Shown here: positions 28,766 to 45,763 of the stretch, in pieces | Numbering within the stretch: the stretch's first letter is position 1 | How the letters are laid out: each line of letters opens with the position of its first letter | From: a virus | Lineage: Duplodnaviria > Caudoviricetes | Virus record (IMG/VR): IMGVR_UViG_2667527945_000002 | Coordinates: 1-64,000 of that record | DNA: 64,000 nucleotides | Strand: one strand, 5' to 3' | Position numbers and translations under genes: made by a program | Notes under the pieces: model-generated | Databases searched by the model: none | What the model was told of the DNA's origin: nothing | What the model saw: only the letters and a program-made list of their open reading frames with translations

Positions 28766-30278
28766 ACCCAGCAAAAGGATTAAAAGTATTTGCCATGCCG
28801 GACCCATTGGCAAAAGGTTTCACTCGCTCACAAGTCAGCGAAGCTATGTATCAGCTAACAGCCGATCCAGAACAAGCCGCATTGATGATGGAAGTTGAGC
28901 CTTTATCTGTCATGGACGCCGCTTATATCGAGGGTGAGCTGGTAGAAAAACAAGATGGGTTTGTGCTGGATGCAGTAACAACCAGCTATGCTGTATTTCC
29001 TCGCACCATGAAAGCACTCGCCAGAGCACTTAACCGAGCGTTATCAAGCAGCGATGTCACCGTAACCGGCCATGAGGTTGGTCAGCCAAAGAAAAACAAC
29101 CTGTTTGCTACCGTGGCCGCGCAATTTACGCTAAGCGATGGGCAGGCGATTAGTGTTGTATTTCACGCCCCTGACGAAGATCCAAAGATATTCAAACCAG
29201 ACGATATTGTTATTGCTTTTCGATGGTTGCTGAATAAACGAGACATTACACCCGTTGTTGCCCCTGAAATGAGTAAGGGGAAAATGCGAGAAGTATCTCT
29301 AACTACGATCGGGAAGCGCATTGGCCATTTAGCCGCTGAAAACTCCAAAGCGTTCCAAGCCAAGCAAAAAGAGGTGACGGCAGCAAGAGAGCAGCTCGCC
29401 AGCTTGGAAGAATCCGCAAACAGCTTACTGGATGAGCTTAATAAGCTGACCACTGAAGTGTCTCAACTTGAAGGCCGCGATCAAGAGCTTGAGCACATGG
29501 TCACGGTCAAGTCCGAAGAGCTAGCAACTCGTAAAAGTTACAATGATAGTCTACGTGAAAAATCGCCGCTCTGAAAGCTGCAGCGCCCGAACCAACTCCA
29601 GAGCCAACAACTGAACAGGGTGAAGGCGAACCGCAACCAGAAGAAAATGCCGCATTAGAGCGTTTTCAGCTGGTGGATCCGTCATTGTATAACGATGTGC
29701 TTTCATCAATGAGCACGATCACGGCTATTGACCGTGGGGAAGAGAAAGGGTTAACTCGCTCACTCTTTGTCAATTCCATTGTTAACAAGTTAAAGACTCG
29801 ACATAACAATGGTCAGTCTGAAGTCGTTGATGCCGCATTAGATTTTATCTCTGAAGCACAAAAAACGCTTGATAAACCAATCATTTCAGCTCGAAATGGC
29901 GTTTGGGCTTTGCATAGCAATGCTACTGGCAGCAAGGAAGAGAAGGATGAACAGGCCACGCCGGAACCGGATGCACCTGAAGCGTCGCCAACGTCTGCAG
30001 ATACGCCGTCACCAGTGGAACCTGATACACCTGCAGAATCCCAAGAAGGGGAAAGTAGTGAAATGAATGAGCAATCTATAGGTGATAAGCCTCAAGCCGT
30101 ACTAACATTAGAGAATATTGTTAATGGTGTACATGATGATGTTGCTGCAGATGATGTGCTTGAAATGATAGAAGAAGCCAGCGAAGAGTTAGAAAAACTA
30201 GAACTGGTGGAGCAATATGACGCCCTAATCGGCTCAGCGGTAGAAAGATACGCAGAGTTAGATGAGAAGCAGGAGTAA
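28762..30278 (+). CDS. darA: DarA-like internal head protein (frameshift at an A tract near 29560 joins the two ORFs)
   Basis: RTMKALARALN..LSDGQAISVVFHAP..AFRWLLNKRDIT.VVAP; one extra A gives EKIAALKAAAPE.. continuing into the 29673 ORF. Confidence 0.8.
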
Positions 30279-30283
30279 TAGGC

Positions 30284-30595
30284 ATGTTATCTGGTGTAGA
30301 GAAACTCAAGCTGGCAAAAGAAATCCGTCAGCTTAGAAAGCAAATAAGAAGCACATCAATCAAAGGTATTGAAAAGTTAAAAATTGCCAAACAAATCAAA
30401 GCAGTTCGTGCTCAGATTGTGGGTGGAGCTAAAAAACTCGCGTCTCGACTCGAAGAGCTGATAAGTGGCAAGTTTGACAACTTAGAGCCGGTAAAATTCA
30501 TCACTATTGTGCGCGAAGTATCTGAAGAGTCGGGCGAATTTGAGTCCGTTAAGCAACCAGTAATTAACTATGTCGAAAAAAGACTCCCAGCCTAA
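30284..30595 (+). CDS. ddrA: DdrA-like protein
   Basis: MLSGVEKLKL..GIEKLKI repeat; position after darA. Confidence 0.65.
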   Translation: MLSGVEKLKLAKEIRQLRKQIRSTSIKGIEKLKIAKQIKAVRAQIVGGAKKLASRLEELISGKFDNLEPVKFITIVREVSEESGEFESVKQPVINYVEKRLPA

Positions 30596-32339
30596 AAAGA
30601 AGGCTGTCATTTCAGCCATTCAAGCGTCCAGCAAGATAGACGGTCTATGTGCCGTCTTCCTTGGCGCCTTTGGTGAAGTGATGAGTGCTCAAACGCATCA
30701 AGCTAAAGCACTCAAACAAAAATTGATCGACACCGAGGATGATTTAGAAAAATTCCAAGTTTGGCGAGACATTGTTTCGCTGCAAGTGGAGCTTAGCCGC
30801 TACGATGATAATCGTTTAGAAGCAATCGCTGAGCAAGGTGCAGACCTTAACAGTTTGCGACAGGCTTACATTGTGCCTGATGATCTTGACGAACGTCAGC
30901 GCCAATTCTGGCAACAGCAAGGCGACAGCTTTCTCAATGAGGTGATTTCCCCAGAGAAATCAAAGTTACTCAAAGAGGTGGCGAGTAGCATCAATGAGTT
31001 ACTCCGAAGTAATCCTGATATCAATGAAAGAATTGAACGTCTCGAAGATGAATACATATCGCCATTGGCAGAAAAAGCCAGAGGGGTGATAGGTAAGATC
31101 CATGAGCAAGGGCAAAGCGAAGTGCTTATGTCTGAGTTTGAAATGATACGTTCAGCCATTGAATCTGCTCACAGAACTCAAATTGACCCTGTTCTTATGG
31201 CCTCAAGTGAAGAGTTGGACCACGTAGCGCGAGAGCAGCTTCAATCACTGCAGGAACAAAAAAAGCGCCTTGGTACCGAGTTGATGTCAGATGTCTACGA
31301 CTCTCTGTTGGAGCATTCAAGCATTTCTTCAGAAGAAGCAGACCTATGGGCCAAAACTCAAGAGATCAGCGCTTCAGCGGTCACTAGGATGCGAAAGTCG
31401 GGCTATCCTGAGTCAGAAGTTAGACGCGACATGGCAACGTACTATCGCTTGATTAATGGACGTCTGGATAATGTTCGCCTTGTAACTACAGGGAGTAAGC
31501 GTGCAAGCGCCATTATCAATACGGCGACCATTGATATTGACCATGATTTTGACCGTCGAACCTTGTTTCACGAAATGAGCCACTTGTTAGAGTCGGATGA
31601 GTCGGTCAAGTTGGCCAATCAACGATTTATTCAAAAACGCGCTTCTGGTACCCCTCAGCGCCTTAGTGAGCTGACCAATAACCGATCCTACAAAAGTGAT
31701 GAAGTCGCTATCCCTGATAACTTCTACTCACCATATGTCGGTAAAGTCTATGAAAGTGGCGCAACTGAAGTGGCTTCCATGGGGATCCAACAGTTCTCAT
31801 CACTAGAAAGCATGTATGCGCTTTATGACAGTGATGATGAAATGTTTACTCTGATGGTCGGTATGATGACAGGGGTTAATGACACGCTCATTCAGCGTCA
31901 AAAGAAACAGTTCGACAAACAAGTCAATGGCGCTGGATTTAACGTTGCAGTGAAAAAGCTCATCAACCAGCTATCTTGGCAAGATGGTCATAGGATGACG
32001 TCTGATGAAGCTTGGCAGCAAGCATTGACAGGGAAAGGAAAAACTAACGCACACAATAAAAAGTGGGGCTGGAAACGCACACTAGGCAGTTGTGAGCTTT
32101 TCCCCGCTAAAGCACCACGCCAGAGAAAGCAGATTTATGGAGTGACAGTGGCTGGTGGCGATAGCGAACAGTCGAAACGCCACTTTTTTAGAGAAAGATT
32201 GCAGGCTGATATCTTCGTGTATATTCACGAGTTGTCGGTTCGAGGTATTAAGCCATTACCTCAAAGCGCTTTCTATCTTGCCTGCAACAATCAAGCACCT
32301 GATTGGTATCAACCTGATACTGAATTACCACTTATTTAA
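30570..32339 (+). CDS. ddrB: DdrB-like protein with zincin-type HExxH domain
   Basis: TLFHEMSHLLE, YVGKVY, TEVASMG; position. Confidence 0.7.
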   Translation: MSKKDSQPKKKAVISAIQASSKIDGLCAVFLGAFGEVMSAQTHQAKALKQKLIDTEDDLEKFQVWRDIVSLQVELSRYDDNRLEAIAEQGADLNSLRQAYIVPDDLDERQRQFWQQQGDSFLNEVISPEKSKLLKEVASSINELLRSNPDINERIERLEDEYISPLAEKARGVIGKIHEQGQSEVLMSEFEMIRSAIESAHRTQIDPVLMASSEELDHVAREQLQSLQEQKKRLGTELMSDVYDSLLEHSSISSEEADLWAKTQEISASAVTRMRKSGYPESEVRRDMATYYRLINGRLDNVRLVTTGSKRASAIINTATIDIDHDFDRRTLFHEMSHLLESDESVKLANQRFIQKRASGTPQRLSELTNNRSYKSDEVAIPDNFYSPYVGKVYESGATEVASMGIQQFSSLESMYALYDSDDEMFTLMVGMMTGVNDTLIQRQKKQFDKQVNGAGFNVAVKKLINQLSWQDGHRMTSDEAWQQALTGKGKTNAHNKKWGWKRTLGSCELFPAKAPRQRKQIYGVTVAGGDSEQSKRHFFRERLQADIFVYIHELSVRGIKPLPQSAFYLACNNQAPDWYQPDTELPLI

Positions 32340-32353
32340 TACTCTTTAGTTTA

Positions 32354-32382
32354 GCCGACTCCCTATCAACAGGGAGCCGGTT
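32354..32382. terminator. hairpin between convergent genes
   Basis: CCGACTCCCT..AGGGAGCCGG. Confidence 0.5.
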
Positions 32383-32384
32383 CA

Positions 32385-32951
32385 TTATTCGCATCCTAAA
32401 ATCCTCGTCATGCCTTCAACCACGTTTAATCGGATCCGTGCTAACGAAAGTTTTAGCTTAGCTTGCGCTACGCCTTCCTCTGCTTGCTCCTTTGCCGTGG
32501 GTGATACCTTTGCTTCGCTGTGAAGTACAGGTAAGTCTCTATGAGAGAAAAAATCCAACACATGAGGCTGAAACAGTTCAACGGGCGGTGTTGAATACCC
32601 TTGATGTACTGCTCGTTCGTAAATCCGCTCAAACTGAGCATGATTTGCGTGCTTGCAGTAAGTTAAAAAGCGATCCCGCATGGTACGGTCTGCCACACCA
32701 ATCATCATTGCTGCATCATGGATGCGTGCTCCGAGAAAGATAGACAATATCGCCTTTTGTGTTTCGTCAGTGTATAGGAAGTTAGTCTTTTCCTCTGACG
32801 ATACTGGTGAGGTCGCCGACTCCTGAACGACCTCGTTTGGATAGTTCGTGACATCCATTTCTTTTCTGCGTCCTGCTGACTCAAGATAGCCTGTCCCAAA
32901 GTCCGTTTTTTCAATATGAGTTATCACAGTATGAAAGTAGTCACCTAGCAC
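32385..32951 (-). CDS. putative SOS-inducible HTH-like regulator; paralog of 49870-50286
   Basis: AAGGAG RBS; GARIHDAAMMIGV HTH-like segment; LexA box upstream. Confidence 0.7.
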   Translation of the reverse strand: MLGDYFHTVITHIEKTDFGTGYLESAGRRKEMDVTNYPNEVVQESATSPVSSEEKTNFLYTDETQKAILSIFLGARIHDAAMMIGVADRTMRDRFLTYCKHANHAQFERIYERAVHQGYSTPPVELFQPHVLDFFSHRDLPVLHSEAKVSPTAKEQAEEGVAQAKLKLSLARIRLNVVEGMTRILGCE

Positions 32952-33000
32952 TACGTCTTCTCCTTTTCTTATTATGGAAGTGCAACCTTTGCACTAACAT

Positions 33001-33026
33001 AGATACTGTTTAAATATACAGTATCT
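33001..33026. promoter_or_regulatory. LexA (SOS) box
   Basis: AGATA-CTGT-TTAAATAT-ACAG-TATCT matches the gammaproteobacterial CTGT-N8-ACAG; overlaps a minus-strand -10 region. Confidence 0.85.
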
Positions 33027-33115
33027 TACATCTTTTTTATATAAATCAAAGACTCAATAAGGGCGAGTATGCATAAGAAGAGATATGTTGTATGTAGACA
33101 AAAAAGTCCACAAAA

Positions 33116-33865
33116 CTAACGAACTCTGAATGAGTCCGCCTTTGTGATTACTTTGAGTGATGAATGACTAGACAATAAAGTACGGAGTTCAAACACGCTA
33201 TAGCCCGTCTTCTCTCGAATTCGAGCCTTCATCGAACGCACGGTAGAGGGCTTAATCCCTAGCCTTTCTGCGGATTCTTTATCGGATAACCCCATTCTTT
33301 TGCAAAAATAAGACGAGACTCAGCCATGCTGAGCGGGTTTGAAAGGTCGGCAAAGTCAGGCACCTTCACATGCCTAGAATCACTGACTCGAAAAAATCAT
33401 TTATTAAAAATGCGGTACCAATCAAGTTTCCATTCAGGTCAATCAACGGGTATTTCTGCGTTTCAACGGTATGCAATTTGACACGATCACCAAAAAGTAA
33501 TCGCAATCTGCAAAAACCATCGCTTGGCGCTCTTCCATAATGAGCTGATCTTGCATTGCATACCCTTTGGCAACCTCATCACTCACACAAGTTGGCATTT
33601 CTTCTAGTCTCTTGCCGTAAAAACTGTACCCACAAGGCAAATCAACCAGCTCCCGATAATGGCAATTCATTACAAGGTATTCAGAGTTAACCCCTTTGAT
33701 ACCAGCGGGACCCGGATATCGCATCAGTTCAGCGACAAGGCAGTCACAAAGCACGAACTGTCCTGAGTGGATGCCATGATGAATGGACGTGTCCTTTCGT
33801 GGATAGCATCGCCGGCACAGGTGTTTATTTTTATTTAAGCAATCGTTATAGCTCTTTGCGGTCAT
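33116..33865 (-). CDS. VqmA-like PAS + LuxR-HTH transcription factor (three homopolymer frameshifts; intact or pseudogene unresolved)
   Basis: PAS: YPGPAGIKGVNS..N..YREL..G..EMP..QD; after repair KYPLIDLNGNLIGTAF and LSMAESRLIF..GLSDKESAERLGIKPSTVRSMKARIREK. Confidence 0.8.
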
Positions 33866-33966
33866 TCTATCCTCGAAAATATCTGTTAGACCGCCAACTG
33901 TAAAACGTAATTTATATATTAATTATTATGTTAATTCTTATTGTAGAACAAATTTTGACAAATTTA

Positions 33967-34000
33967 TGTGGATGCCTGTATTCATGTGGCTTGTTACCCT
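33967..34000 (+). promoter_or_regulatory. putative late promoter
   Basis: TGTGGATGC-N19-TACCCT upstream of darB. Confidence 0.65.
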
Positions 34001-34062
34001 CCAAATGAACATTAATGTTTGCCCATCAACAGGAGGATGGCGAGCCTCCCGCCATAAGCTGA

Positions 34063-37000
34063 ATGTACAAATTCTTAATAACAACCCCTTTTAAATCAGA
34101 AGTTTCCATTCTGATTAGTTCCGAGTGGGACCAAAAATCGAACGTCGAAATGGAAGGTTCAGACGATGACAAAAAGATGATAGAAAATTTCATCCGTTTT
34201 CATGGTATGACTCCCGACGGTCGCTTAGCTGGCCTACCAGAAATAGCACCAATGAGCGCTCATTATTCATTTACAACTAAAGCCGCTGTAGAACAGGGCT
34301 TTTCTATTACGTTTATTCAAGGTGAGCAAAAACCATACCCACACCGTGATGTGATCTTTGATAGCGCCAGTGATGACGCCCCATCGTTCACCACCAAACC
34401 ACAGTCCTTTAAACTGCAAGACCGTTACCAATTTCAAAACTTACCCATTTCGATTGAGAACAAAGCTGGCACGAAACGCTCTGGCGTCGATCCGGATGGT
34501 AGCGAATGGTCCGTCTCAATGCATTATGACTACGGATACATAAGGTCAACCAAAGGCACCGATCAGGAAGGTATCGACTGTTACGTTGGACCAAACCGAA
34601 AAGCCGATCACGTCTACATCGTAAAACAACATGCGATCGAAAAAGTAAAGCAGTGGTCGTCTAAGTATTGCCCTCAATGCAAAGAACACACGCACGACTG
34701 TGCATGTCCTGAATTCTTTGATGAAGACAAAGTAATGCTGGGCTTTGATAATAAAGAACAAGCAAAAGCAGCCTATCTGAAGCAGTACGATTCCGATCTG
34801 TTCTTAGGACCGATCTCTACCATGCGCATAGAAGACTTCAAGAAAGCGATCGCTGATGCTGATGGAGAGGAATTAGACCTGCCGTTACAGTTTGTTCATG
34901 ATCATGCCGTGCTGGATAGCGCAACGAACGAAGAAATCAAAGCGCTACAAAACGCAAAAGATATCAACGAATTAGAAAGCGTTTTCAATCAATTATTTAC
35001 TCCTACCAATTATGCTGATGAGCGCGATTTCGGTCTAAAAGCAAGCGGGGTAAAAACAAGAGAAGCGATCAATAACAAGGTAAAAGCGATCGTTGATCGA
35101 ATTAAGGCGGCAAACTGGGATACCAGCAGCTTGAGCGCCGAAGATTATGATCTGCTTGTACAGTACTCTGGTCGTGGGGGACTAAGTGAAAACAGCCAGT
35201 ACGAGTACTACACACCAACTTACATCGCAGAAGGGTGTTGGGACTTATTGAACGCTAACGGCTTTGATAATGGTAACGTGCTAGAACCTTCAGCGGGTGC
35301 CGGTGTGTTTAATGCGACTAAGCATCAAGGCGTGAAAATGACGGCAACAGAAATCGATCCGATCAGTTCTGCCGTAAATAAAATCCTTCACCCTGAAGAC
35401 AACGTATTTAATCAGTCATTTGAAACGATGGCCGTTGAATCTCCCGACAATCACTTTGATTCCGTTATTGGCAATATTCCATTTGGTAGCGCTCGTGGCG
35501 CGTCGGCCCACGACGATCCTGACCATAAAAATGAAAAACTGATTGAACGTTACTTTATCAACCGTCTCATCGACAAAGTGAAGCCGAGCGGATTACTGGT
35601 GCTCGTGGTTCCCGTCAATATTGTCCGTGAGCGTGGTAAGGCGTGGCAAAAATGGCGAGCTAAAATCAGTAAGAAAGCGGAATTTCTTGGTGCTCATAAA
35701 CTCCCAAGCAAAACATTTGGTAAACAAGGGACTGGTGTTGTCACCGATATTATCGTTCTTCGTAAGCACTCAAAGAATGGCGCTGAGAAAATAGCTCAAC
35801 TCCCAATGGCACAACTGCAGGAATCTAACGTGCTCTGGGATACCTTTATTGAAGGTAAATGGTGGGACCGCGATGGCAAACCGTTCATTCACGGTAAGTT
35901 CGTCGCCAAAGATGCGAGCAAAATCCGTGATGATGACAAAGTTATCCGTGATTCAAGCGTAACTGATGTAGCGCTCAAACGAAAACTAGCCGCTAAGTTC
36001 CACTCTCGCATAGATTGGGAAGCTCTTGATACGGCAGAGCCTGTGATTCATAACTATGTTGAAGGCGATCGTCGAGTGATTGATGAACGCACCTACGAGT
36101 TCACTCGTGGTAACTGGGAACCAGCAGACAGCCTGCAGGGAATGACAACCGCCATAGACAAAAATAAGTATGGGGTATCTTCGCTTGAAGCACTGCAGGG
36201 GCTGCTTGAAAGTAATCATGGGTTAATGTCGCTTTCGGTTAAGCAAGCCTTTGCTGCGATGAAAGCATGGGGCCATTTATTCAGTAAGCCCCAAAAACAA
36301 GCGATTGAGTTTGCAATGACTCAACCAAGTGATGAATACCGAGAGCAAATTTTCAGAGGCTCACTTATTGGCGCGGATCTCGCTCGTTTCCAAAATGACA
36401 CCAACCAAGGCGAATGGAATGCGACAGAACAAATGCGCCTTCAAGAGCTGGTGGCGAATGAAATCAATAAATATGGGCATCCAAAACAAAACAAGGGATT
36501 GATCCTCGCTGGTGAAAGCTCTCGCTACTTTGGTGTATTTTCTAACGCCATGGATGAAAACGGAGATTACTCCACTCTACTAACCGGTGATGTGAGCACA
36601 AAAGGACTGGCATTTGACGATACCAATCCACATGCCATCGTTGAGCACCTGTATCTACGAGAGGGCATGACTCATATTACGCTAGAAGACATACAGCAGC
36701 TGTACAAGGGTAAAACACCTATCCAATCGCTGTCTGATCTGGCCGACAACAAAAACCTTGCCATTCACCCTGACGGGCTTGTAATGCCAATGACTCGCTT
36801 TTGTTCAGGAGACGTTTACCAAAAAGTGCTAACACTAAGCCATGCACTTAATCTTGAGACGGATCCAAAGCTAAAAGCCAAGTATCAGCAACAGCTTGAA
36901 GAGATAGAGCAGCGACGCTTCAAAACAGAATCAGAAAACATTGCTTTCTCAATGCGCCACAAGTGGATTGACCGCAAATATGTTCTCGAATTCATGCACG

Positions 37001-40000
37001 AAAAAGGGTATTCCAACTTGGATTACCTCGTGGATAAAAAGCAGGTCGCACAAGATGATGATACTGGCAGTAGCTATGTAGAGAACGTTAAGATTCGTGA
37101 TACCAGATCTCCTTTTGGTGAGTTCGTGGGTTATGACGATACTCAAGGCTTTCACAAGCAACTTAATAACTGGCTGAATGGCGGTAACGTCACCAGTTCA
37201 AAGCAAGAATATATCGAAGAATACAAAGAGCGCGTCTCTCGTTTAGATGAAGAGTTCCGCCTTTGGATGCAGCAACACAAGGACATTGACGATCTCTCTG
37301 AACTATATAATCAAAAATTCAACTCATACATTCCATTTGAGCACTCTGATTCAGATTTAGGCTTAGAAGGCGTCAGCGCCATGGTTAAACCTCATGGTTA
37401 TCAATGTGCCGCCGTTCGTCGCTTGTCAGAAGATGGTTCCGGTATTCTTGGTTTTGATGTTGGTCTTGGCAAAACCTTCAGTGCTTTAGCGCTGGCCGCA
37501 TATAACAAGCAAATGGGCCGAGCGAGCAAGACGTTGATTGTCGTTCCTAACTCTGTTCTAGCGAACTGGTATCACGAAGCTAAGATGTTCCACGGCAAGC
37601 TGGATAACGCTTTATTTGTTGGCTTTAAGCCCAAGCAGGACAAAGAAGGACAAATTCAGAGAGAGCCAGTCAAAGACGAGAAGGGCAATCCTAAGAAAAA
37701 CAAACACACAGGCGAAGTTGAGTATCAAGACATCTTGATCAAAGAATCCGCTGAAGAAGTGTTTGATAAGATGCACCAAATACCACAAACGTCTAAATCG
37801 TTAGTGGTCATGACCTTTGAAAAGTACAAAGAAATTCAGATGCGCCCCGTCAACAAGCACAAGTATGCGGACAAGTGGGTAGAAAAATCACTAATTTCTG
37901 ATCAAATGGCAGCAAGTACTGTTGCGGGTGATGATTTCAGCCTTGGTAAAGGCAAAGATAAGATCAGCTATAAAGAAGCGGTACGAAAAGAAGCCCTGCA
38001 ACAACGATTCCTTGAAGATGGTGGTCATAAGAAGGGCGAATACCCTTACTTTGAAGATATGGGGATCCAATCGGTAATCATTGATGAAGCCCACGCATTT
38101 AAAAATAGCTTCAAAGCCGGCGACAAAACCGCAAATATCGCATACCTCCCTAATCCAACGGAATCACAGCGTGCTATCGACATGGCAATGAAGATGGCTT
38201 ACCTGCGTGACCAAAACGAAGGGCGCGGTCCGGTTCTATTGTCAGCAACACCTGTCACCAACTCGCCACTAGAAATATTCAACATGCTGTCACTGGTCCT
38301 GCCGGTAGAAGAGTTTGAAAAATTCGGCGTTTATACTGCAGACGATTTTGTACGTGTATTCGGCAAGGTCGACAATATAGAAAAAATGACCGTGCGCGGT
38401 GACATCGTTCAAAAAGACGGACTGGTTGGCTTCCAAAACTTAGATGGACTGCGAAACCTTTTCCACCGTTACACTCTCATGCGAAATGCTGAAGACGTTA
38501 ACCTAGCGTTACCTGATGCGCCAGAATCTCATGAAAATGTTGATATGACCGACGATCAGAATTCGGCCTATGAGACACTGCGTGAAGAAGCTAAAGAAGC
38601 CAGCAAACCAGCAAGACAACGTAGCCCTAACGCTCGTGCTTTATTTGCTGTTATGCGCGATATGGACAAAGTAACCACGGACATGGATTTGTACAATCAA
38701 ACCATGACCTTTACTTTCCCTGCAGCAAAGGCAAAAGCTGTCGATCAATTAATTGCCGCACTACCACCGTCTATCGAAGCTGAGCGTATTGAGCAGACAG
38801 AAGATGGGGAAGAGGTAAAGCGCAAAGTTTCTATTGAGCTTGAATACCAACGCAGTGAAGAATCCGAGTCTATTGTGCTGGTGGTTCCTGATGTTTACGA
38901 ACAAGCCGTTCTTGATCGTCTAAATGACGCTCTTATCAAGTCGTCAGATGTTAGTCACCCATTACCACCAAAATACGCGAAATTGATTGCCAACTTAACA
39001 GCAGAGCTGGAAGTGAAAGGTAAGCAAATCATCTTTACGGAAGAGAAAACGCAGCATCACAAACTCAAGCGCATTATCGTTAATCAGCTTGGCCTTGATG
39101 AGAAACAAATCGGCATTATTAATGGCGCCGACGCTGCAGGAGCGAAGCTTCAACGTATTGCTGATGCGTATAATGCTGGTGATATCAAAATCGTTATCTG
39201 TAACAAGAAAGCGGAAGTGGGCGTAAACCTCCAAAAAGGAACAAGCGCAATCCACCACTTAACGCTCCCATGGACTCCTGCTTCAATCCAGCAGCGTAAT
39301 GGCCGTGGTGTAAGGCAAGGCAATACTGCCTCAAAAGTCAGTTTGTACTACTACCTTGGTAAAGGGTCGTTTGATGGGTACCGCCTTGATCTGCTTAATA
39401 AGAAAAAGAGCTGGATGCGTGACTTATTCAACGGCACTGAGTCTGAGGCCGTCAATGGTAACGCCATTGATAACGACGACTACCTTGATATGTTTGAAGC
39501 GGATCCTGAAGCAGCTAAAGCTAAGCGAATGGAACGCTTGGCACAAAAGCAAGCTGAACGTAAACGCAAGTCAGATCTAAAGTGTGCCGTAGACTTGTCT
39601 CAAGTGATTGGTCTACGCAGCCAGCTATCGAATTGGGAAACCAACAAAGCCGAAGACTACAACCGCCTCATTGAGCGTAAAAACAAAGCGCAAGCTTCGC
39701 TATCGAGAGTCAAAGAAAAAAGCGAAGACAGCGGTAAAGCTGAACAAGCACTGGCTCGTGTGAATAAATCTATTCAAGATCACGATGAAAAATGGCAAGA
39801 AGACAAACGAAAGCTTGAATCTAGACTGTCACAACGTGTGACGTTCCTGAAACAGAAAGCCAGTGCCGGTGAATTGCCGTTTAATGGTGAAATCATAGAA
39901 AACCCAGAAACCGCCATCGTAGCGCGTGATGGTACTGTGCTCACTATTGGGGATCATCTTGAGACGGACTTTGGTGCCATTCTTCGCATTGAACAAGTAG

Positions 40001-41112
40001 AGCAGGAGTCTCGTAGTGTGCATTACTCTGTACCTGTCGGGGATGTCTCTTACTACTGGTGGGGACGTCGCAATGGGGAGCACATGAAAGCGGACCTTGA
40101 TTCGATGCCTGAAGGTTTAAAGCGTGTTTCTTTGTCAGATGATGAGGTGAGAGTAAAACAAATACTGTCTATCACTTACAGCTACAGTACGCTTCCAAAA
40201 CTGAAAAAAGATCAGTTCACTAAATATCGTGATGACATCAACCTACAAAGCTACGGTAATTTCCTATTCCGTGCGGACGGTCAACTGGCGATTGCCAGCA
40301 TTGACCAATACCAGCGAGACCAGCTTGTTTTCCCAGATACCAGTGATAACGCGCTAAAACGCGAAATAGCACTGCATTACTTAAAGTTACGCCGAGAAGG
40401 TAAGCCAGCTTTTGCATGGCGCGACATCGTTAAGCCGTTTTTTGGTGCTCACTACGATCAAGAAATTGCAGAGTATGGTGATAAAGCGTCTCAAGGGGAG
40501 GTCTTAGCCGTTTGTGATCGGGCTTGGAATGATTACCAGCCAACGCTCATGGAGGGTATTCAATTGTCCTCTTCGCTGAAAGCCTTACCTGAAGCCATTG
40601 CGAAGCATCAAGCTTACCGATTGGCTCGCCAAGACTTCCAAGAAAACGCAGAAGACAAAGCCGCTGAGCTGGGTGATAACCGTGCTGAAATCAATCGCTG
40701 GGTGCGTGAATACATTGCCGGATTGGAGAGTAAACTACTTGATGATGCAGAAACGGCTAAACGCCTCGCTGCCGATGCTGAGCTAGAAGAGTTAAAAACG
40801 AATCCGGCATTCAAAGAACTTGCAGCAGAGGTTAAAAAAGGCTTTGACGATATCGGTATTATTGCTCGTTACAATTACAAAGATGTGCCTATCCCTCGCA
40901 ACGGGCGCTACCGTGCGCGTACATTGCCTGCATTCCAGCATTTCTTTTTGCAGGACAAAAACGGCAAAGCAGGGAAGCTATTTTCAGCGAAAGATATTCT
41001 GAAGAATCGCTTTGGTGCTAAATTCTGTGCGGCGGAAGGAGATTGGGAGGGCAGTTGGTGGTACTTCCCTGCTAGCGTTGATGTCGCTGAGATATTTGAA
41101 ATAATCGCCTAA
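34063..41112 (+). CDS. darB: DarB-like polyvalent protein: InPase-like domain + N6-adenine methyltransferase + SNF2 helicase
   Basis: ISIEN..G..R..YGYI..T.G.D...D.YVG..DEDKVMLGF; EYYTP, VLEPSAGAGVF, GNIPFG; GLGKT, DEAH, SATP, QRNGRGVRQG. Confidence 0.92.
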   Translation: MYKFLITTPFKSEVSILISSEWDQKSNVEMEGSDDDKKMIENFIRFHGMTPDGRLAGLPEIAPMSAHYSFTTKAAVEQGFSITFIQGEQKPYPHRDVIFDSASDDAPSFTTKPQSFKLQDRYQFQNLPISIENKAGTKRSGVDPDGSEWSVSMHYDYGYIRSTKGTDQEGIDCYVGPNRKADHVYIVKQHAIEKVKQWSSKYCPQCKEHTHDCACPEFFDEDKVMLGFDNKEQAKAAYLKQYDSDLFLGPISTMRIEDFKKAIADADGEELDLPLQFVHDHAVLDSATNEEIKALQNAKDINELESVFNQLFTPTNYADERDFGLKASGVKTREAINNKVKAIVDRIKAANWDTSSLSAEDYDLLVQYSGRGGLSENSQYEYYTPTYIAEGCWDLLNANGFDNGNVLEPSAGAGVFNATKHQGVKMTATEIDPISSAVNKILHPEDNVFNQSFETMAVESPDNHFDSVIGNIPFGSARGASAHDDPDHKNEKLIERYFINRLIDKVKPSGLLVLVVPVNIVRERGKAWQKWRAKISKKAEFLGAHKLPSKTFGKQGTGVVTDIIVLRKHSKNGAEKIAQLPMAQLQESNVLWDTFIEGKWWDRDGKPFIHGKFVAKDASKIRDDDKVIRDSSVTDVALKRKLAAKFHSRIDWEALDTAEPVIHNYVEGDRRVIDERTYEFTRGNWEPADSLQGMTTAIDKNKYGVSSLEALQGLLESNHGLMSLSVKQAFAAMKAWGHLFSKPQKQAIEFAMTQPSDEYREQIFRGSLIGADLARFQNDTNQGEWNATEQMRLQELVANEINKYGHPKQNKGLILAGESSRYFGVFSNAMDENGDYSTLLTGDVSTKGLAFDDTNPHAIVEHLYLREGMTHITLEDIQQLYKGKTPIQSLSDLADNKNLAIHPDGLVMPMTRFCSGDVYQKVLTLSHALNLETDPKLKAKYQQQLEEIEQRRFKTESENIAFSMRHKWIDRKYVLEFMHEKGYSNLDYLVDKKQVAQDDDTGSSYVENVKIRDTRSPFGEFVGYDDTQGFHKQLNNWLNGGNVTSSKQEYIEEYKERVSRLDEEFRLWMQQHKDIDDLSELYNQKFNSYIPFEHSDSDLGLEGVSAMVKPHGYQCAAVRRLSEDGSGILGFDVGLGKTFSALALAAYNKQMGRASKTLIVVPNSVLANWYHEAKMFHGKLDNALFVGFKPKQDKEGQIQREPVKDEKGNPKKNKHTGEVEYQDILIKESAEEVFDKMHQIPQTSKSLVVMTFEKYKEIQMRPVNKHKYADKWVEKSLISDQMAASTVAGDDFSLGKGKDKISYKEAVRKEALQQRFLEDGGHKKGEYPYFEDMGIQSVIIDEAHAFKNSFKAGDKTANIAYLPNPTESQRAIDMAMKMAYLRDQNEGRGPVLLSATPVTNSPLEIFNMLSLVLPVEEFEKFGVYTADDFVRVFGKVDNIEKMTVRGDIVQKDGLVGFQNLDGLRNLFHRYTLMRNAEDVNLALPDAPESHENVDMTDDQNSAYETLREEAKEASKPARQRSPNARALFAVMRDMDKVTTDMDLYNQTMTFTFPAAKAKAVDQLIAALPPSIEAERIEQTEDGEEVKRKVSIELEYQRSEESESIVLVVPDVYEQAVLDRLNDALIKSSDVSHPLPPKYAKLIANLTAELEVKGKQIIFTEEKTQHHKLKRIIVNQLGLDEKQIGIINGADAAGAKLQRIADAYNAGDIKIVICNKKAEVGVNLQKGTSAIHHLTLPWTPASIQQRNGRGVRQGNTASKVSLYYYLGKGSFDGYRLDLLNKKKSWMRDLFNGTESEAVNGNAIDNDDYLDMFEADPEAAKAKRMERLAQKQAERKRKSDLKCAVDLSQVIGLRSQLSNWETNKAEDYNRLIERKNKAQASLSRVKEKSEDSGKAEQALARVNKSIQDHDEKWQEDKRKLESRLSQRVTFLKQKASAGELPFNGEIIENPETAIVARDGTVLTIGDHLETDFGAILRIEQVEQESRSVHYSVPVGDVSYYWWGRRNGEHMKADLDSMPEGLKRVSLSDDEVRVKQILSITYSYSTLPKLKKDQFTKYRDDINLQSYGNFLFRADGQLAIASIDQYQRDQLVFPDTSDNALKREIALHYLKLRREGKPAFAWRDIVKPFFGAHYDQEIAEYGDKASQGEVLAVCDRAWNDYQPTLMEGIQLSSSLKALPEAIAKHQAYRLARQDFQENAEDKAAELGDNRAEINRWVREYIAGLESKLLDDAETAKRLAADAELEELKTNPAFKELAAEVKKGFDDIGIIARYNYKDVPIPRNGRYRARTLPAFQHFFLQDKNGKAGKLFSAKDILKNRFGAKFCAAEGDWEGSWWYFPASVDVAEIFEIIA

Positions 41113-41193
41113 CACTTAACAGGTATCTAATAAATACTTATTTAACACTCTTAGGGTATCTGCTATATTGTAGATACCCTACGGCAAGGAACC

Positions 41194-41616
41194 ATGAAAA
41201 TGAAAATAAAATTTCCAACACAGGCAGAGTTGAAGCCTCTCTACGATGAGGCAATCGACGGCCAAACAGAAGAGCAGTGGATGGAGAAGTTTCTCGCAAC
41301 TGTCACTACGATGTTACGCAAAAATCCGCTCTGGTATCGCGCATACGGGGTGTACTGGTGGGGCGTAAAGCAGATGCTGATTGAACGTAATTTAATAGCA
41401 TTCGATTTCGTTGATGCCGAATGGGTTGAAAAAATTCAATACGAAAAGCCGGCTTATCACTTACTGGCTGCATTTGCTTACCACGATGAACGGCAAGACA
41501 TTGGTGCTCTTGAAGATGATACTCACGTCATTGAGCTGGATGATGGCTCAATTGATAGCTACATTTTGATAGATGAAGACTTTGAGCTACACGCTGTCGC
41601 TAATACCCTGTCTTAA
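41194..41616 (+). CDS. ulx: Ulx-like protein
   Basis: NPLWYRAYGVYWWGVK motif; adjacent to darB. Confidence 0.75.
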   Translation: MKMKIKFPTQAELKPLYDEAIDGQTEEQWMEKFLATVTTMLRKNPLWYRAYGVYWWGVKQMLIERNLIAFDFVDAEWVEKIQYEKPAYHLLAAFAYHDERQDIGALEDDTHVIELDDGSIDSYILIDEDFELHAVANTLS

Positions 41617-41692
41617 TTGCACTAAAAGGGTATCAATTCGATACCCTTTAAACCCCAAGTAAATACCTTCCTTATTTTTTCAAACAAATCTG

Positions 41693-41726
41693 TGTTGATG
41701 CGCCCCTTATAGCAGCTGGTTACTCT
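41693..41726 (+). promoter_or_regulatory. putative late promoter
   Basis: TGTTGATGC-N19-TACTCT upstream of the portal gene. Confidence 0.7.
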
Positions 41727-41755
41727 CTCGATGTTAATTAACAGGCGAGAGAATC

Positions 41756-43417
41756 ATGGCTGAGAACAAAAAGAAAAGGAGTCTGCTCTCACGATTATTC
41801 CGAGGTCAGCAAGAAGAGGACCACAGCGGTCACTTGGAGCTAGCAGAATCCGGATTTGATTACGAAGACGCAGGCAAGATTGACGAGCTACTTGGAAAAG
41901 AAAGCGCCCAATCTGAGTCAGAAACTGAAAAGCTGATTGAACCTTTTCCTCGTAATCGTCGTGCTGGCTACTTACGTTTTGAAGAAATGGCCGTTGATCC
42001 TACGATCGACAGCGCCCTTAAAATGCACGTCGCCAACGCTCTATCTGCGAAGACGGATACAGGAGAGATCTTGTTCATTGCTTCAACCAAAGAGGGCGAG
42101 GGTGACAAGATAGTCAAAGACCTGAGAAACACAATTGGTCGATGGCTCAATGAAAACGCAGAAGCTATAGCCTTTCAAGCAGCCAAGTATGGGCTGAGCT
42201 ATGTTCGTCCATACATTGAAAAGCAGAAAGGGATCACTCATATCCGCTTTGACCACTACACACATCCTGCACACATTCGCTGTTACGAACGTGCCGGATT
42301 GCTGTGTGGCTACACCTCTAAGTACCAACGAAGCCTTGAAAAGAAGGGGTTAGTTGAACTCATGGAGCCATGGAAGTTTATTCCATTCAAAATCCCCAAG
42401 TGGGACGGTCATGGAAGCACTCTGTTAGAGCCTGTGCGCCTAAACCCAATGGCATTTGATATCAATGACGACGACTACCTAAACGAAGAACCCGTTGAAA
42501 CACAAGACTACGGTTCAAGCCTGTTACGGTCAGCCTACGATCCATGGGTTGATTTAAACGAAGCTATCCTGTCGCTCAATTCAGCGAGAAAAAATGCCGC
42601 GAAAAGGGACCGTTTCATTACCATTCAAACGGGTAAGAAAAATCCCGCATTAGCTGCTCAGTACTACAACACGATATTGGGTGCGTTAAAGCGCAAGCTT
42701 AACTTATCAGCTAAGCGCTCAGCCAAGCGTGGTCATATTTCAACAATTGATAATCACATTCTACCGGTTACCGCTGACGGGTCTGGTCAAGTCAACATTC
42801 AAACCGAACAATCAGACGTCAATATTAGCCACATTGAAGACGTCAACTTTCACGTTAATCGTCTCTGCAGTGCGCTGGGCGTTGATAAGTCATTGGTTGG
42901 TTTTACAGAAGACATGGCCGGCGGTCTTGGTGAGGGTGGCTGGTGGACTCAATCAATGGTTGCCGCAATCAAAGCAAACCTGATCCGACGAGCTATTAAA
43001 GCTGGTGCTGAAAGGCTGTGTGAAATCCACGTACTAATGAAATGGGGCAAGGTTTACACCGAAACGGACAAACCTTGGCGCATTGAGTTCAACAGCTTAA
43101 ATAATGTATTAGAGCGTGAAGAGGCAACCGCGAGAGAGTCCCGTATTAACTTTGCCACTTCAGTAGTTACGCTTATGCAGATACTGGATCCGGACCTCAA
43201 CAAATTCAATTTTAACCATACTTCAAACTGGCTTTTCACTGACGTTCTTCGTGTTAATGAAGAAACGTTTAAGCAGCTTATTGAAGCTGCGAAAGAAGGT
43301 GATGAGGATGAAGTAAACAACGTTCTGGACTCGGTTTCTGATCCAGAAAGCCACAATCAACTGAAAACCATGATTTACAGCTGCATTGCAGAGCTGATGG
43401 GAGAGGAAAATGTCTAA
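41756..43417 (+). CDS. prt: portal protein (P1 Prt-like)
   Basis: EEMA..PTI..AL..H...ALS, ETQDYGSSLL, GGLGEGG, IEFNS.N. Confidence 0.9.
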   Translation: MAENKKKRSLLSRLFRGQQEEDHSGHLELAESGFDYEDAGKIDELLGKESAQSESETEKLIEPFPRNRRAGYLRFEEMAVDPTIDSALKMHVANALSAKTDTGEILFIASTKEGEGDKIVKDLRNTIGRWLNENAEAIAFQAAKYGLSYVRPYIEKQKGITHIRFDHYTHPAHIRCYERAGLLCGYTSKYQRSLEKKGLVELMEPWKFIPFKIPKWDGHGSTLLEPVRLNPMAFDINDDDYLNEEPVETQDYGSSLLRSAYDPWVDLNEAILSLNSARKNAAKRDRFITIQTGKKNPALAAQYYNTILGALKRKLNLSAKRSAKRGHISTIDNHILPVTADGSGQVNIQTEQSDVNISHIEDVNFHVNRLCSALGVDKSLVGFTEDMAGGLGEGGWWTQSMVAAIKANLIRRAIKAGAERLCEIHVLMKWGKVYTETDKPWRIEFNSLNNVLEREEATARESRINFATSVVTLMQILDPDLNKFNFNHTSNWLFTDVLRVNEETFKQLIEAAKEGDEDEVNNVLDSVSDPESHNQLKTMIYSCIAELMGEENV

Positions 43418-44440
43418 AACGATCCTGCAAAGAATCACATGTACCTTCAATATTTTTGATACAGGTAGAAAGTACACCGGCAAACAGCGCGGTTACATAC
43501 TGAATAATGTTAAATCTGTCCTGAACTCACCAGAAGTACAGGAGCGGCTAAGATTACGTGAGCTGGTTGGCTATGTGTCACATGGGTTGCGTGAAATGGC
43601 GGGTAAGCTGACATTGGGTGAAACTTTGCCAGTACAGTTGCCTAACGGCCAAATGACCGTGGTTAACGCCATTCCAGCAAATGTGACCGTTGAGCTATCA
43701 ATCGACGATGACGGCAATTTAACTCACACTCAAGAAGTGCTCGATAATGACGAAGGACGTAAGCTACTTGGTTTGCATAATTCACGTATTGGCGGCTTTT
43801 CATGGGCCTGTGGTGGTGGGAAGCTGGGTGGTAACACGTTAATCAATGGCTTTTTTGGTTTTGATTATGTTCATAACCCTTTATTTGCTGCTAACCGTGG
43901 TTACGTGTTGGATTCTGAATCAGGAGAAGAAGAATTTGACCGTCAGGCTATTCTGGATAACTTGAGCAGTGCTGGGGTGCCTGATGAAAATAGAGAGATG
44001 GTTTTAGATGCTTTTAATGCTTCTATTGCATTTGAGTCAGCTCAATACAAAGGGATGCTTCTTGACGCTCAGCAAGTTATTGCCGATCAAGATGAAAAAA
44101 CACAAGAGCTTCAACAGCTCTTAGATAGTGCTTCAGAAGAAACTGAAGCTTTAAAATCTGAAAAAACAAGTCGAGAGCAGTTTTTCAAGCAACTTCAAGA
44201 ACGTAGTCACATTGTAATTACTGATCAGGTGCTTGACGCATTGGTTAGCGCTGATAGTGAAGAAGGCATGGAACTTATCATGCAGATGGTTATGGATGCC
44301 GCTAATATCAGCACTCAGCATTTGCCGTTATCTCAAAAAAGAAAACCTTTGTAAAGCAATTCCCAGAGCTAGATTCCGAAAGCGATTCAGATGATCCGTT
44401 CAGCATTAAAGCTTCTATGGATGCAGGGTTCTATGATTAA
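43410..44440 (+). CDS. pro: prohead protease/scaffold (P1 Pro-like); A-tract frameshift near 44340 extends it to 44440
   Basis: GY.SHG.R, P.NVT, HTQE.LD, GGFSWA.GG, GFDYV..P; acidic coiled-coil tail. Confidence 0.88.
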
Positions 44441-44533
44441 GCCTTGCTAGGCCAATGCTGGCGAAGCCAGTGTGTTGAGTAAATAAGCATTAGGCACATT
44501 GTTCCTATGTTAATAGTAAGGTTAATGTGAAAG

Positions 44534-44560
44534 AAAAAGGAGCCAAACGGCTCCTTTTTT
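44534..44560. terminator. bidirectional rho-independent terminator
   Basis: AAAAAGGAGCC-AAAC-GGCTCCTTTTTT. Confidence 0.85.
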
Positions 44561-44903
44561 ATGCTTCTTTTTTCTTCTGCTCTTTGAGCGTTTTCTCTAT
44601 CAGCTTGTTCATGCCGTCAGCAATTAACACTTGGCAAAGGTGTTTACGATTCGCAAACTGTGGGTCCAATTCTGCCAGTTTGGTACCCCATTCACGGTAA
44701 TACTCGTTTAAATTGATGTGAACTGGCTTTTCAGATGTTTTTGTTTTATCGGTTGACTCTAAAGCGTCATACCATGCAACTGTAGGTTCTGATTTTGCTT
44801 CTTCAGGTGTACTGCCTTTTCCATTGATGAAAGCGTCTGTTTCTTCTTCAGATATTTGTTTTTTTCGAACAGGTTCTCTGAATCGTTTATCTTTATCAAC
44901 CAT
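44559..44903 (-). CDS. ParA partner (probable centromere-binding adaptor, type Ib)
   Basis: Coupled downstream of parA; DAFINGKG motif and a C-terminal strand-helix-helix. Confidence 0.6.
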   Translation of the reverse strand: MVDKDKRFREPVRKKQISEEETDAFINGKGSTPEEAKSEPTVAWYDALESTDKTKTSEKPVHINLNEYYREWGTKLAELDPQFANRKHLCQVLIADGMNKLIEKTLKEQKKKEA

Positions 44904-45754: not shown

Positions 45755-45763
45755 TTATCCACA
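45755..45763 (+). promoter_or_regulatory. DnaA box of origin 1
   Basis: Perfect TTATCCACA. Confidence 0.8.

Follow-up and report, generated by a model that had tools for sequence, protein, structure and literature searches.

The closest described relatives of the regulator reported here are VqmA of Vibrio cholerae, a quorum-sensing receptor for the autoinducer DPO, and the VqmA-phage of the Vibrio phage VP882. As set out in excerpts of PMC8284805, VqmA acts on a divergent gene (the vqmR sRNA or qtip) through a palindrome, GG-N6-CC or GG-N9-CC, within the promoter region that both genes share. So far a single, tightly related family of linear plasmid phages is known to eavesdrop through VqmA; according to excerpts of PMC12802170 (mBio 2025), its published VqmA-phage members are >95% identical and lie between telN and repA of these phages. 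In the literature we found VqmA homologues described solely in the VP882-like linear plasmid phages (the supplements of PMC12802170 and of the Nature 2023 paper may list more) and no description of the family to which the present regulator belongs, in agreement with the original prediction that no example had been described in the P1-like class.

We analysed a window of 64,000 nt, part of the 82-kb record IMGVR_UViG_2667527945_000002. We suggest, as a reasonably probable reading, that the product of the locus below is a transcription factor of 250 aa, intact, from a small sister family of VqmA carried by phages, with an inferred role that would involve a ligand, an operator, and an SOS promoter. 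The original prediction is confirmed as an observation, and its interpretation is borne out in part.

33116..33865, minus strand: VqmA-like regulator gene, 250 codons, intact, with three 1-nt under-calls in the record

Integrity of the regulator gene

The ORF listing and the DNA alignment show that the loss of one base at each of three sites splits 33116-33865 (minus strand) into four ORF pieces, and the pieces contain the peptides quoted in the original prediction:

33443-33865, minus strand: ORF piece 1, 140 aa (ORF listing)
33366-33506, minus strand: ORF piece 2, 46 aa (ORF listing)
33259-33369, minus strand: ORF piece 3, 36 aa (ORF listing)
33116-33295, minus strand: ORF piece 4, 59 aa (ORF listing)

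Aligned with three intact syntenic 753-nt genes, the window copy has exactly three 1-nt gaps (alignment columns 392, 495, and 578), each where the gene strand has a run of T. These correspond to + strand A runs 33304-33308, 33391-33396, and 33492-33496, at most 3 nt from the positions originally proposed (33306, 33393, and 33494). One extra A behind 33303, 33390, and 33491 is present in 4/4 public runs, as judged from Logan contigs placed on 29500-49499; runs with small shares were left out of this comparison, and the evidence consists of assembled contigs, which do not show rare variants. The claim that the pieces form one gene of 250 codons, with one extra base per T tract, is therefore upheld by independent assemblies. 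A search for intact homologues in related Vibrio phage-plasmids, also proposed at the outset, found the frame open in 11/11 homologous loci examined.

The contig of one run (X1), which is probably the source sample judging by its letters, shows 0 other differences from the window over 13,330 nt. Its differences from the record consist only of an added A in A runs, at 7 sites in 20 kb, with 0 T runs affected; 0 substitutions together with additions confined to A runs is what a systematic error would look like. The same type of frameshift also occurs in further genes of the record that are probably essential. These comparisons show the three frameshifts to be homopolymer under-calls of the record, and a practical caution follows, as systematic A-run under-calls lead to false pseudogenes.

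A runs of at least five letters are affected at 3/6 sites within the 750-nt gene and at 4 to 5 of 78 sites in the rest of the 20 kb compared, a local excess of A-run losses within the regulator gene.

We consider it improbable that the regulator is a true pseudogene in the clone, with the three deletions present in the DNA and X1 merely a sister strain. The uneven share of affected A runs would agree with such decay, as would the blindness of contigs to rare variants and the lack of a recorded sequencing technology for X1. However, the lack of substitutions over 13.3 kb with additions only in A runs, the recurrence of the same lesion in other, probably essential, genes, and the intact gene in three further runs from other studies and in all 11 homologous loci argue against it. 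Programmed frameshifting or phase variation, with the T tracts toggling the regulator on and off, would account for three homopolymer sites in a single gene and is highly improbable: when intact the tracts reach just 6-7 nt, their length is the same in all four assemblies, the same type of error is spread across unrelated genes of the record, and the protein would require three shifts at once. An RNA run (X8) was rejected as expression evidence, as it covers the 20 kb at even depth and contigs cannot reveal transcription.

Protein architecture, family, and ligand pocket

With the under-calls corrected, the intact protein of 250 aa begins with a Cys/His module, followed by a PAS domain and then an HTH of the LuxR type; the HTH coordinates are approximate, and so, because of the under-calls, are those of the PAS domain.

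33725..33865, minus strand: N-terminal extension, residues 1-47, with C17-x2-C20, H29, and C40-x-C42 (alignments)
33388..33724, minus strand: PAS ligand-binding domain, residues ~48-160, approximate (PAS_4, AF2, alignment to the VqmA PAS domain)
33164..33345, minus strand: C-terminal four-helix LuxR/GerE-type HTH, residues ~175-235, approximate (AF2 helices, VqmA alignment)

On the intact homologues Pfam PAS_4 matched at E 2.4e-5 to 2.8e-4, exceeding the curated cut-off in 2/3. GerE remained under its curated cut-off of 23.5 bits, with 17.2 bits for the last fragment of the window copy; 2/3 intact homologues scored 12.1 and 13.2 bits. Among the four fragments Pfam gave weak HTH matches in the last one only, and the fragments alone are insufficient to identify the protein. 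An AF2 model built from 29 sequences reached a mean pLDDT of 74.7, with 85-95 across the PAS part (an earlier 8-sequence model with a pLDDT of 54.2 was discarded), and placed HTH helices at 181-191, 196-203, 207-221, and 225-234. This region aligns to the VqmA DNA-binding domain, and the fold-level match stands despite the GerE score.

In a phmmer search of 177,635 PDB sequences with an intact homologue, four VqmA sequences were the sole hits under E 0.1, at ~1e-4. With the family profile, 4/4 PDB hits at E <= 0.01 were VqmA (E 3.5e-10 to 1.3e-7), the only solved relatives being VqmA of V. cholerae (3.5e-10) and of phage VP882 (1.3e-7). The best 8 Foldseek chains were all VqmA (E 5e-14 to 3e-10, 21-25% identity), followed by EL222 at E 2.4e-6. 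An exhaustive profile search of 1.84 billion representatives reached P0036, which is a true relative of VqmA, at E 6.1e-5, and a fold search of BFVD returned generic PAS or HTH viral proteins only (best E 5.7e-6), with no closer viral relative found. The resemblance to VqmA greatly exceeds what chance would give. The HMM and structure searches, with VqmA at the top by profile and by Foldseek, thus agree with the predicted PAS plus LuxR-type HTH protein nearest to VqmA and the VP882 VqmA-phage, and by sequence comparison the family is a deep sister family of VqmA, not an orthologue. The gene had been described as hidden, which is true of this record; other records list it under the names 'PAS domain-containing protein' or 'hypothetical protein', or as phrog_27555 'transcriptional regulator'.

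At the codon level, dN/dS is 0.00-0.12 over the whole gene (8 of 15 computable pairs) and 0.00-0.04 in the N-terminal part (7 computable pairs), which shows strong purifying selection on the whole gene, including the N-terminal extension. The Cys/His extension is conserved across three clades; the full-length third clade (L015) retains CQKC..SIH..CGC. The extension announced in the original prediction is therefore real. AF2 confidence is low at residues 1-30 (pLDDT 48-66), the N-terminal segment alone had no match in Pfam, and the ESM Atlas gave nothing usable for residues 1-50. An Ogr/Delta zinc finger was rejected: PF04606 had no match at E <= 1 in the N-terminal 50 aa, nor in six frames of the whole record. 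From its motif we regard the Cys4/His module as putatively zinc-binding and zinc-finger-like; it would bind zinc or supply a metal or redox input.

Excerpts of bioRxiv 10.1101/2019.12.19.881847 report that the DPO contacts F67, F99, and K101 of VqmA are crucial by mutagenesis, and that F99A retains residual DPO binding. In the phmmer and profile alignments K101 corresponds to K138 here and is conserved, F67 corresponds to Y102 with the aromatic character retained, and F99, the second stacking residue, corresponds to T136 and is lost; K138, Y102, and T136 are invariant across the phage-borne family. Tyr36, Gln70, Asp71, and Asp85 of VqmA are retained as Tyr70, Gln105, Asp106, and Asp120, as is the equivalent of Lys23, while H87 is replaced by Asp and H97 by Ile/Val. 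The pocket had been predicted to keep a Tyr, the Gln-Asp pair, and a Lys and to carry Tyr for a Phe, all of which holds (Tyr36, Gln70-Asp71, Lys101, and Phe67); the change of Phe99 to Thr had been missed. A small molecule would bind the PAS pocket, and given this mix of kept and changed residues, the ligand could be DPO-like or something else.

Mobility, candidate operator, and proposed role

Synteny and similarity place the element of the window among the P1-like Vibrio phage-plasmids, as had been predicted, and there in the p0908/pVv01 family. This group is P1-like in its P1-type Dar, tail, Cre-like, and partition genes, and pVv01 is inducible by mitomycin C (PMC4132613). Seven Vibrio plasmids match a 1.2-kb query at 76.6-83.7% DNA identity over 100% of its length, and for one of the records compared (NZ_CP046830.1) 85/95 proteins have a tblastn match in the 82-kb record; a DNA search of GenBank phages with the 1.2-kb region gave no match. 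The regulator family is tiny: apart from a phage region in one Cellvibrionaceae genome, its members occur in two Vibrio phage-plasmid backbones that are unrelated to each other. One backbone is P1-like, the other (L012/L013) carries P2-type GpU/X/GpD and an IncFII RepA, and the regulator gene is the sole coding region common to L012/L013 and the whole 82-kb record. This comparison of gene content shows the regulator to be a single-gene cassette in unrelated temperate Vibrio phage-plasmids.

Three features lie downstream of the gene:

33093..33112: 20-bp palindrome, candidate operator, TGTGGAC-N6-GTCTACA (gene strand), 4 nt past the stop codon
33004..33023: LexA (SOS) box, TACTGTATATTTAAACAGTA (gene strand), in the promoter region of the 188-aa gene
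32385..32951, minus strand: 188-aa gene, candidate module output, directly downstream and co-oriented, phrog_25672 (unknown function), E 1.3e-92

At <=2 mismatches the palindrome has a single match in the window, and it is invariant in 7/7 P1-like sequences. Its 13-nt core recurs, inverted, right after the gene's stop codon in the unrelated L012/L013 backbone, and in both backbones 45.5-47.5 bp separate the palindrome from a TTGAGY block. Gene and downstream palindrome thus move together in these two backbones; after the gene of the third clade L015 the palindrome was not found. A terminator-like site overlaps the end of the regulator gene, and the palindrome could be a weak transcript-end hairpin instead of an operator.

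In the P1-like elements the palindrome lies upstream of the LexA-box promoter of the 188-aa gene. The box has 0 mismatches to the pattern, with 0.09 chance matches expected, and is single in the window; among three CTGT-N8-ACAG sites in the 82-kb record, the one at 33004-33023 alone has the AT-rich LexA consensus. Its CTGT..ACAG core is conserved in 7/7 relatives. The 188-aa gene has poor promoter hexamers separated by a spacer of 15 nt, and the promoter scan gave no more sites than shuffled sequence did. The 188-aa protein has no Pfam or PDB sequence match, is paralogous to the product of ORF 49870-50286 (28% identity, E 1e-9), and gave weak HTH-like leads in the ESM Atlas, every score being < 0.9. 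The L012-type phage has no homologue of it, so the output there would have to differ; in L012/L013 a short ORF of 21-26 codons follows the gene, the two loci being nearly identical.

On the other side of the gene lies a conserved region:

33866..34062: divergent intergenic region, 197 bp, between the regulator gene and a DarB-like gene, conserved, holding the likely promoter of the regulator gene

Its mean column identity is 84% (alignment A3). Promoter-like minus-strand sites occur at 33961-33934 and 33904-33876, such sites being no more numerous in the promoter scan than in shuffles, and AT-rich palindromes occur at 33908-33936. Rfam applied to 32300-34400 found no VqmR-like RNA, the only hit being a chance snoRNA match (E 1.6). 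The sole conserved palindrome of the right size has another sequence and lies 3' of the gene, and the VqmA-type divergent target was accordingly not found. A counter-oriented 42-codon ORF (33966-34094) is poorly supported as a qtip analogue by selection and by frame conservation: its frame is kept in 7/9 P1-like sequences and shifts after codon 21 in the other 2, dN/dS is 0.40-2.00 in 9 computable pairs, and no counter-oriented ORF was found in the L012 context.

We propose that a dimer of the regulator would bind the 20-bp palindrome 3' of its own gene and modulate the promoter that follows. In the P1-like elements this promoter, with the record's only consensus LexA box, would drive the 188-aa gene, and a single candidate switch for induction would then receive both DNA damage and the sensed ligand as inputs. 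The ligand, the DNA target, and the role in induction are predictions from sequence.

It is possible, though we think it unlikely, that the regulator acts not on induction but on host or phage accessory genes, either host group behaviours during lysogeny or a DarB-like anti-restriction operon. VP882 VqmA-phage activates host vqmR too (excerpts of PMC11945551), the gene is located among dar-type genes and outside the immunity region, and conservation is high in the 197-bp region between it and the DarB-like gene. In addition, the same element encodes an AphA-like PadR regulator (1YG2, E 2e-20), which suggests a wider mimicry of host quorum-sensing regulators. Against an accessory role, the divergent region contains no palindrome of the TGTGGAC-N6-GTCTACA type, the recognition helix is unlike that of VqmA, and the cassette travels with its own downstream palindrome.

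Returning to the proposed switch, a bolder version is offered tentatively and is doubtful as a whole. Here the family would be a second, independent VqmA-type lineage in phages, with a zinc (metal/redox) module and a non-DPO pocket, carried as a gene-plus-operator cassette between P1-like and P2-tail marine Vibrio phage-plasmids; chemical and SOS signals at one promoter would decide induction, and with the AphA-like regulator of the same element the phage would have a shadow version of the Vibrio quorum-sensing circuit. A VqmA relative on a marine Vibrio phage-plasmid suggests that small-molecule signals may be sensed by a second kind of phage. The receptor described here is of the VqmA type but deeply diverged, and the phage-plasmids that carry it are of two other types; it adds a conserved Cys/His module, its pocket is altered, and its candidate operator is portable. 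If the proposal is true, small-molecule sensing by temperate phages is broader and more modular than known. The locus also offers a directly testable system, in which the 20-bp site and the SOS-box promoter are defined and the P1-like Vibrio prophage can be induced.

Comparison with known systems

VqmA of V. cholerae (PDB 6UGL, 6IDE, 6KJU) has the same PAS plus LuxR-type HTH core in about 230-250 aa and is the best match to the regulator in sequence and fold, yet at 21-25% identity. It lacks the ~47-aa N-terminal Cys/His module of the phage-borne regulator, and its pocket differs from the regulator's at F67 (Tyr), F99 (Thr), H87 (Asp), and H97 (Ile/Val). VqmA sites are of the form GG-N6-CC and lie upstream of divergent targets, whereas the candidate operator here, TGTRGAC-N6-GTCYACA, lies downstream of the regulator's own gene; no vqmR-like RNA was found beside it. 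EL222, a light-activated LOV-HTH protein, shares the PAS/LOV plus LuxR-HTH architecture, with a fold match far weaker than that of VqmA.

In the TF-smORF modules of linear plasmid-like phages (Silpe et al., Nature 2023) the transcription factor lies outside the classical immunity region, as it does here. Those modules combine SOS as a parallel input with a counter-oriented small ORF, for which the 42 codons at 33966-34094 would be the candidate; unlike in those modules, this small ORF is without clear purifying selection, and the co-oriented 188-aa gene is the better candidate output.

The VP882 VqmA-phage (gp56, PDB 7DWM) is also a VqmA-type receptor in a plasmid-maintained temperate Vibrio phage; that phage is likewise SOS-responsive, and a second input to the phage decision is a plausible role. 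The two proteins are nevertheless distant (profile E 1.3e-7; tblastn of GenBank phages with P0004 missed VP882 at E <= 1e-3). VqmA-phage belongs to linear phages and the regulator to circular P1-like and P2-tail/RepA elements; the former lacks the N-terminal Cys/His module, the latter a qtip homologue. The logic of VP882, in which SOS is joined by VqmA-phage/Qtip, would thus be analogous to that of the proposed switch, but built differently.

Interruptions in the regulator reading frame

In the record, the regulator locus (33116–33865, minus strand) is divided into four ORFs of 140, 46, 36 and 59 codons, in which the peptides quoted in the original prediction are all present. When 72,556 plasmids were searched for distant DNA similarity to a 1.2-kb query, seven matched, all from Vibrio and including p0908 and V. 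vulnificus p48/10 (76.6–83.7% identity, 100% query cover), and every one of these plasmids carries a single syntenic gene of 753 nt. DNA alignment with three intact plasmid genes reveals exactly three 1-nt gaps in the window copy, all at T runs of the gene strand. The runs short by one base are:

33304–33308, plus strand, A run in the regulator gene
33391–33396, plus strand, A run in the regulator gene
33492–33496, plus strand, A run in the regulator gene

A search of public runs gave 15 rows in which half or more of the sampled words occur, and 20 holders in all, from 12 studies. Logan contigs from four runs were compared over 29500–49499: X1, which is probably the source sample, because it shows 0 other letters along a 13,330-nt piece; X3, from a jellyfish metagenome; X6, from a different isolate; and X8, from RNA-seq of another organism. 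Each of the four carries one more A behind 33303, 33390 and 33491, so that the tracts are each one base longer in independent contigs and one longer protein results, as had been proposed. An additional A is likewise found in 4/4 runs behind 29557 and 49440, further apparent frameshift sites, and X1 adds two more (46094 and 47000). Over the 20 kb compared, 8 of 84 A runs (≥5 nt) and none of 22 T runs are affected; this confinement to A runs is the signature of systematic under-calling of homopolymers. Could the three deletions nevertheless be real in the source DNA, making the gene a clone-specific pseudogene? Three of the gene's own six A runs are hit, a local excess that is unexplained and that leaves this alternative a small probability. 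The full frame, N-terminal extension included, is open in 11/11 homologous loci examined, so the intact homologues sought in related phage-plasmids exist and are not decayed; the shorter annotated CDSs of p0908 and p48/10 are start-codon choices. We conclude that the breaks are record errors.

The rest of the 81,983-bp IMG/VR record to which the window belongs shows similar damage. Of the 95 proteins of its closest plasmid, NZ_CP046830.1, 85 have a tblastn match in it; four of these shift frame and a fifth, the regulator gene, has stops, while blastn over the whole record reveals more uncompensated 1-nt losses within coding regions. Scattered losses produce apparent frameshifts in other genes as well, such as one of 502 aa in the dar region, another of 396 aa and that of a DEAD/DEAH helicase:

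29557–29562, 44327–44340, 46094–46099, 47000–47005 and 49440–49445, single-base losses in the window
57530, 60999 and 65284 (record positions), single-base losses beyond the window

Those inside the compared 20 kb appear as an added A in independent contigs and are therefore A-run under-calls. Separately, the 1,603-nt stretch 45770–47372 is exchanged for 1,420 other letters in X3, X6 and X8, whereas X1 matches the window, and the record also lacks any match to the RepB-family initiator of NZ_CP046830.1; close to the replication region, a cassette has been swapped at 45770–47372.

A sister family of VqmA and its carriers

The proposed PAS/LuxR-HTH, VqmA-like character is borne out by profile and structure searches. 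Pfam PAS_4 matches intact homologues at E 2.4e-5 to 2.8e-4, over the curated cut-off in 2/3, and several HTH families match under theirs. With an intact homologue as query, the sole matches below E 0.1 among 177,635 PDB sequences are four VqmA sequences (6UGL, 6KJU and 6IDE from V. cholerae, 7DWM from phage VP882), aligned over residues 48–223; a profile of nine family members finds only VqmA at E ≤ 0.01 (4/4 matches, E 3.5e-10 to 1.3e-7). An AF2 model from 29 sequences (mean pLDDT 74.7, 85–95 across most of the PAS domain) has VqmA chains as its top eight Foldseek matches in PDB (E 5e-14 to 3e-10, identity 21–25%), followed by EL222 (E 2.4e-6). The VqmA-like identity is thus well supported.

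The family comprises eight clusters at 90% identity among 5.8 billion proteins. When 1.84 billion representatives were searched exhaustively with the family profile, only four matches reached E ≤ 1e-10, namely the family's own cluster, one 205-aa relative and two fragments. In the weaker tail of 49 matches, the 18 members fetched and aligned (about 220–250 aa) are PAS-HTH proteins. The tail also contains a genuine relative of VqmA, P0036, which matches 6UGL at E 5.5e-32. Taken together, these searches place the regulator in a family that is a deep sister of VqmA rather than among VqmA orthologues.

That the host element is a P1-like phage-plasmid agrees with its relatives, p0908/pVv01-type Vibrio plasmids. 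This group comprises seven PLSDB records, two IMG/VR contigs (L010, L011) and a 79-kb V. owensii contig (L014), and includes pVv01, a myovirus prophage inducible by mitomycin C (PMC4132613). A second backbone is represented by L012, L013 and two 41-kb Vibrio cyclitrophicus phage records, with the L012/L013-type order P2-type GpU, X and GpD, the regulator gene, a convergent cI-like XRE gene and an IncFII-type RepA; a tblastx comparison shows no coding region other than the regulator gene to be common to L012/L013 and the whole 82-kb record. The third setting is a phage-gene region in a Cellvibrionaceae MAG. Across 185,579 species, each represented by one genome, only two regulator loci were found. 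The description of the gene as hidden holds for the window record, where the frame is broken, but not for public relatives, where it is annotated as 'PAS domain-containing protein', 'hypothetical protein' or 'transcriptional regulator'.

The window also encodes a relative of AphA, the Vibrio quorum-sensing regulator of low cell density, so that two quorum-sensing regulators of the host have look-alikes on the element:

59810–60322, plus strand, 170-aa PadR-family protein (best solved relative AphA, 1YG2, E 2e-20; next PadR 9e-8)

Putative ligand pocket and N-terminal module

In VqmA, F67 and F99 are described as stacking on DPO and K101 as hydrogen-bonding it; F67A and K101R lose DPO binding and F99A keeps residual binding (bioRxiv 10.1101/2019.12.19.881847).

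Equivalents of VqmA residues in the regulator family (PDB phmmer and family-profile alignments)
VqmA residue; family residue; state
K101; K138; kept
F67; Y102; aromatic kept
F99; T136; lost
Y36; Y70; kept
Q70, D71; Q105, D106; kept
D85; D120; kept
K23; K57; kept
H87; D122; changed
H97; I/V134; changed

The pocket Tyr, Gln-Asp and Lys are retained and one Phe has become Tyr (Y70, Q105-D106, K138 and Y102), as the original prediction had it, and all listed equivalents except position 134 are invariant in eight close members. Judged from these alignments, the pocket looks functional but reshaped; a signalling role is plausible, and DPO is a possible ligand that the pattern does not imply.

Residues 1–47 have no VqmA counterpart. 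The predicted Cys/His-rich extension is conserved: C17-x2-C20, H29 and C40-x-C42 are kept in alignments of the P1-like clade, a 59%-identity clade and a third clade at 37–39% identity (represented by the fragment P0014 and, at full length, by Cellvibrionaceae locus L015). For residues 1–47, dN/dS is 0.00–0.04 (7 computable pairs) and 0.00–0.12 for the whole gene in 8/15 pairs, the remaining pairs being saturated. Neither Pfam, Ogr_Delta included, nor ESM Atlas identified its fold; we infer a putative zinc-binding module.

Candidate output and comparison with known systems

In P1-like elements, the regulator gene and a 188-aa gene of the same orientation make up an island of two minus-strand genes between plus-strand dar-type operons; the two are separated by a strongly conserved spacer of 164 bp containing:

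33093–33112, 20-bp palindrome, 4 nt past the regulator stop codon, unique in the window at ≤2 mismatches
33004–33023, consensus LexA box, 0 mismatches (0.09 chance matches expected), the only good box in the 82-kb record

In the L012/L013 backbone, which is unrelated, a 13-nt palindrome core reappears in inverted form directly past the regulator stop codon, and the distance from palindrome centre to a TTGAGY block is 45.5–47.5 bp in both backbones. Given this recurrence and similar spacing, the gene seems to move together with an operator of its own, for which the palindrome is the candidate, and an adjacent promoter-like segment. Its layout resembles that of VqmA sites as described in PMC8284805 (short G/C arms, a 6–9-nt spacer, A/T-rich in Pqtip), whereas the sequence differs. 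The palindrome hairpin could instead be a weak transcript end.

If the palindrome is an operator, a ligand-bound dimer would act there on the next promoter, which in P1-like elements would also be under LexA and drive the 188-aa protein, a candidate induction switch belonging to phrog_25672 (function unknown). We regard this output step, from dimer at the palindrome to the LexA-controlled promoter, as tentative and rather doubtful: the palindrome is absent past the regulator gene in L015, the promoter hexamers are weak, and tblastx found no 188-aa homologue in the L012 context.

Several further features were observed around these loci:

32385–32951, minus strand, 188-aa gene downstream of the LexA box, paralogue of the following (28% identity, E 1e-9)
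49870–50286, plus strand, 138-aa product, first gene of an rdgC-trfA-like operon
L012 6800–6880, plus strand (L013 likewise), palindrome, then TTGAGC block, AGGAGG and a 21–26-codon ORF reaching the convergent cI-like gene at its 3' end
33966–34094, plus strand, 42-codon ORF counter-oriented to the regulator gene and overlapping the DarB-like start
34037–34055, conserved hairpin in the DarB-like gene leader (ATGGCG..CGCCAT on the minus strand)
34063, plus strand, ATG start of the DarB-like gene (MYKFLITTPF...)

The short L012/L013 ORF could represent an output that runs antisense to the repressor gene. The 42-codon ORF occurs in 7/9 P1-like sequences, with dN/dS of 0.40–2.00 and its frame lost in V. 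cholerae and V. vulnificus plasmids, and is not supported as a qtip mimic; an Rfam search of 32300–34400 found no VqmR-like RNA. The DarB-like start, indicated by the synonymous substitution pattern across relatives, lies ~110 nt upstream of that annotated in several of them. In its leader, an alternative GGAGG/CCTCC pairing would mask the Shine-Dalgarno-like AGGAGG, and the hairpin may be a translational control element.

TF-smORF modules have been described only in linear plasmid-like phages (Silpe et al., Nature 2023), and phage VqmA homologues likewise only in VP882-like linear plasmid phages, where the isoforms are given as >95% identical to one another (PMC12802170). In line with the original prediction, the main texts searched contained no mention of VqmA-type genes in phage-plasmids of the P1-like or P2-tail kind. 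What is new, as read from sequence, is a VqmA-type phage regulator in further phage classes, differing from known phage VqmA in its added conserved module, altered pocket and different regulatory layout.
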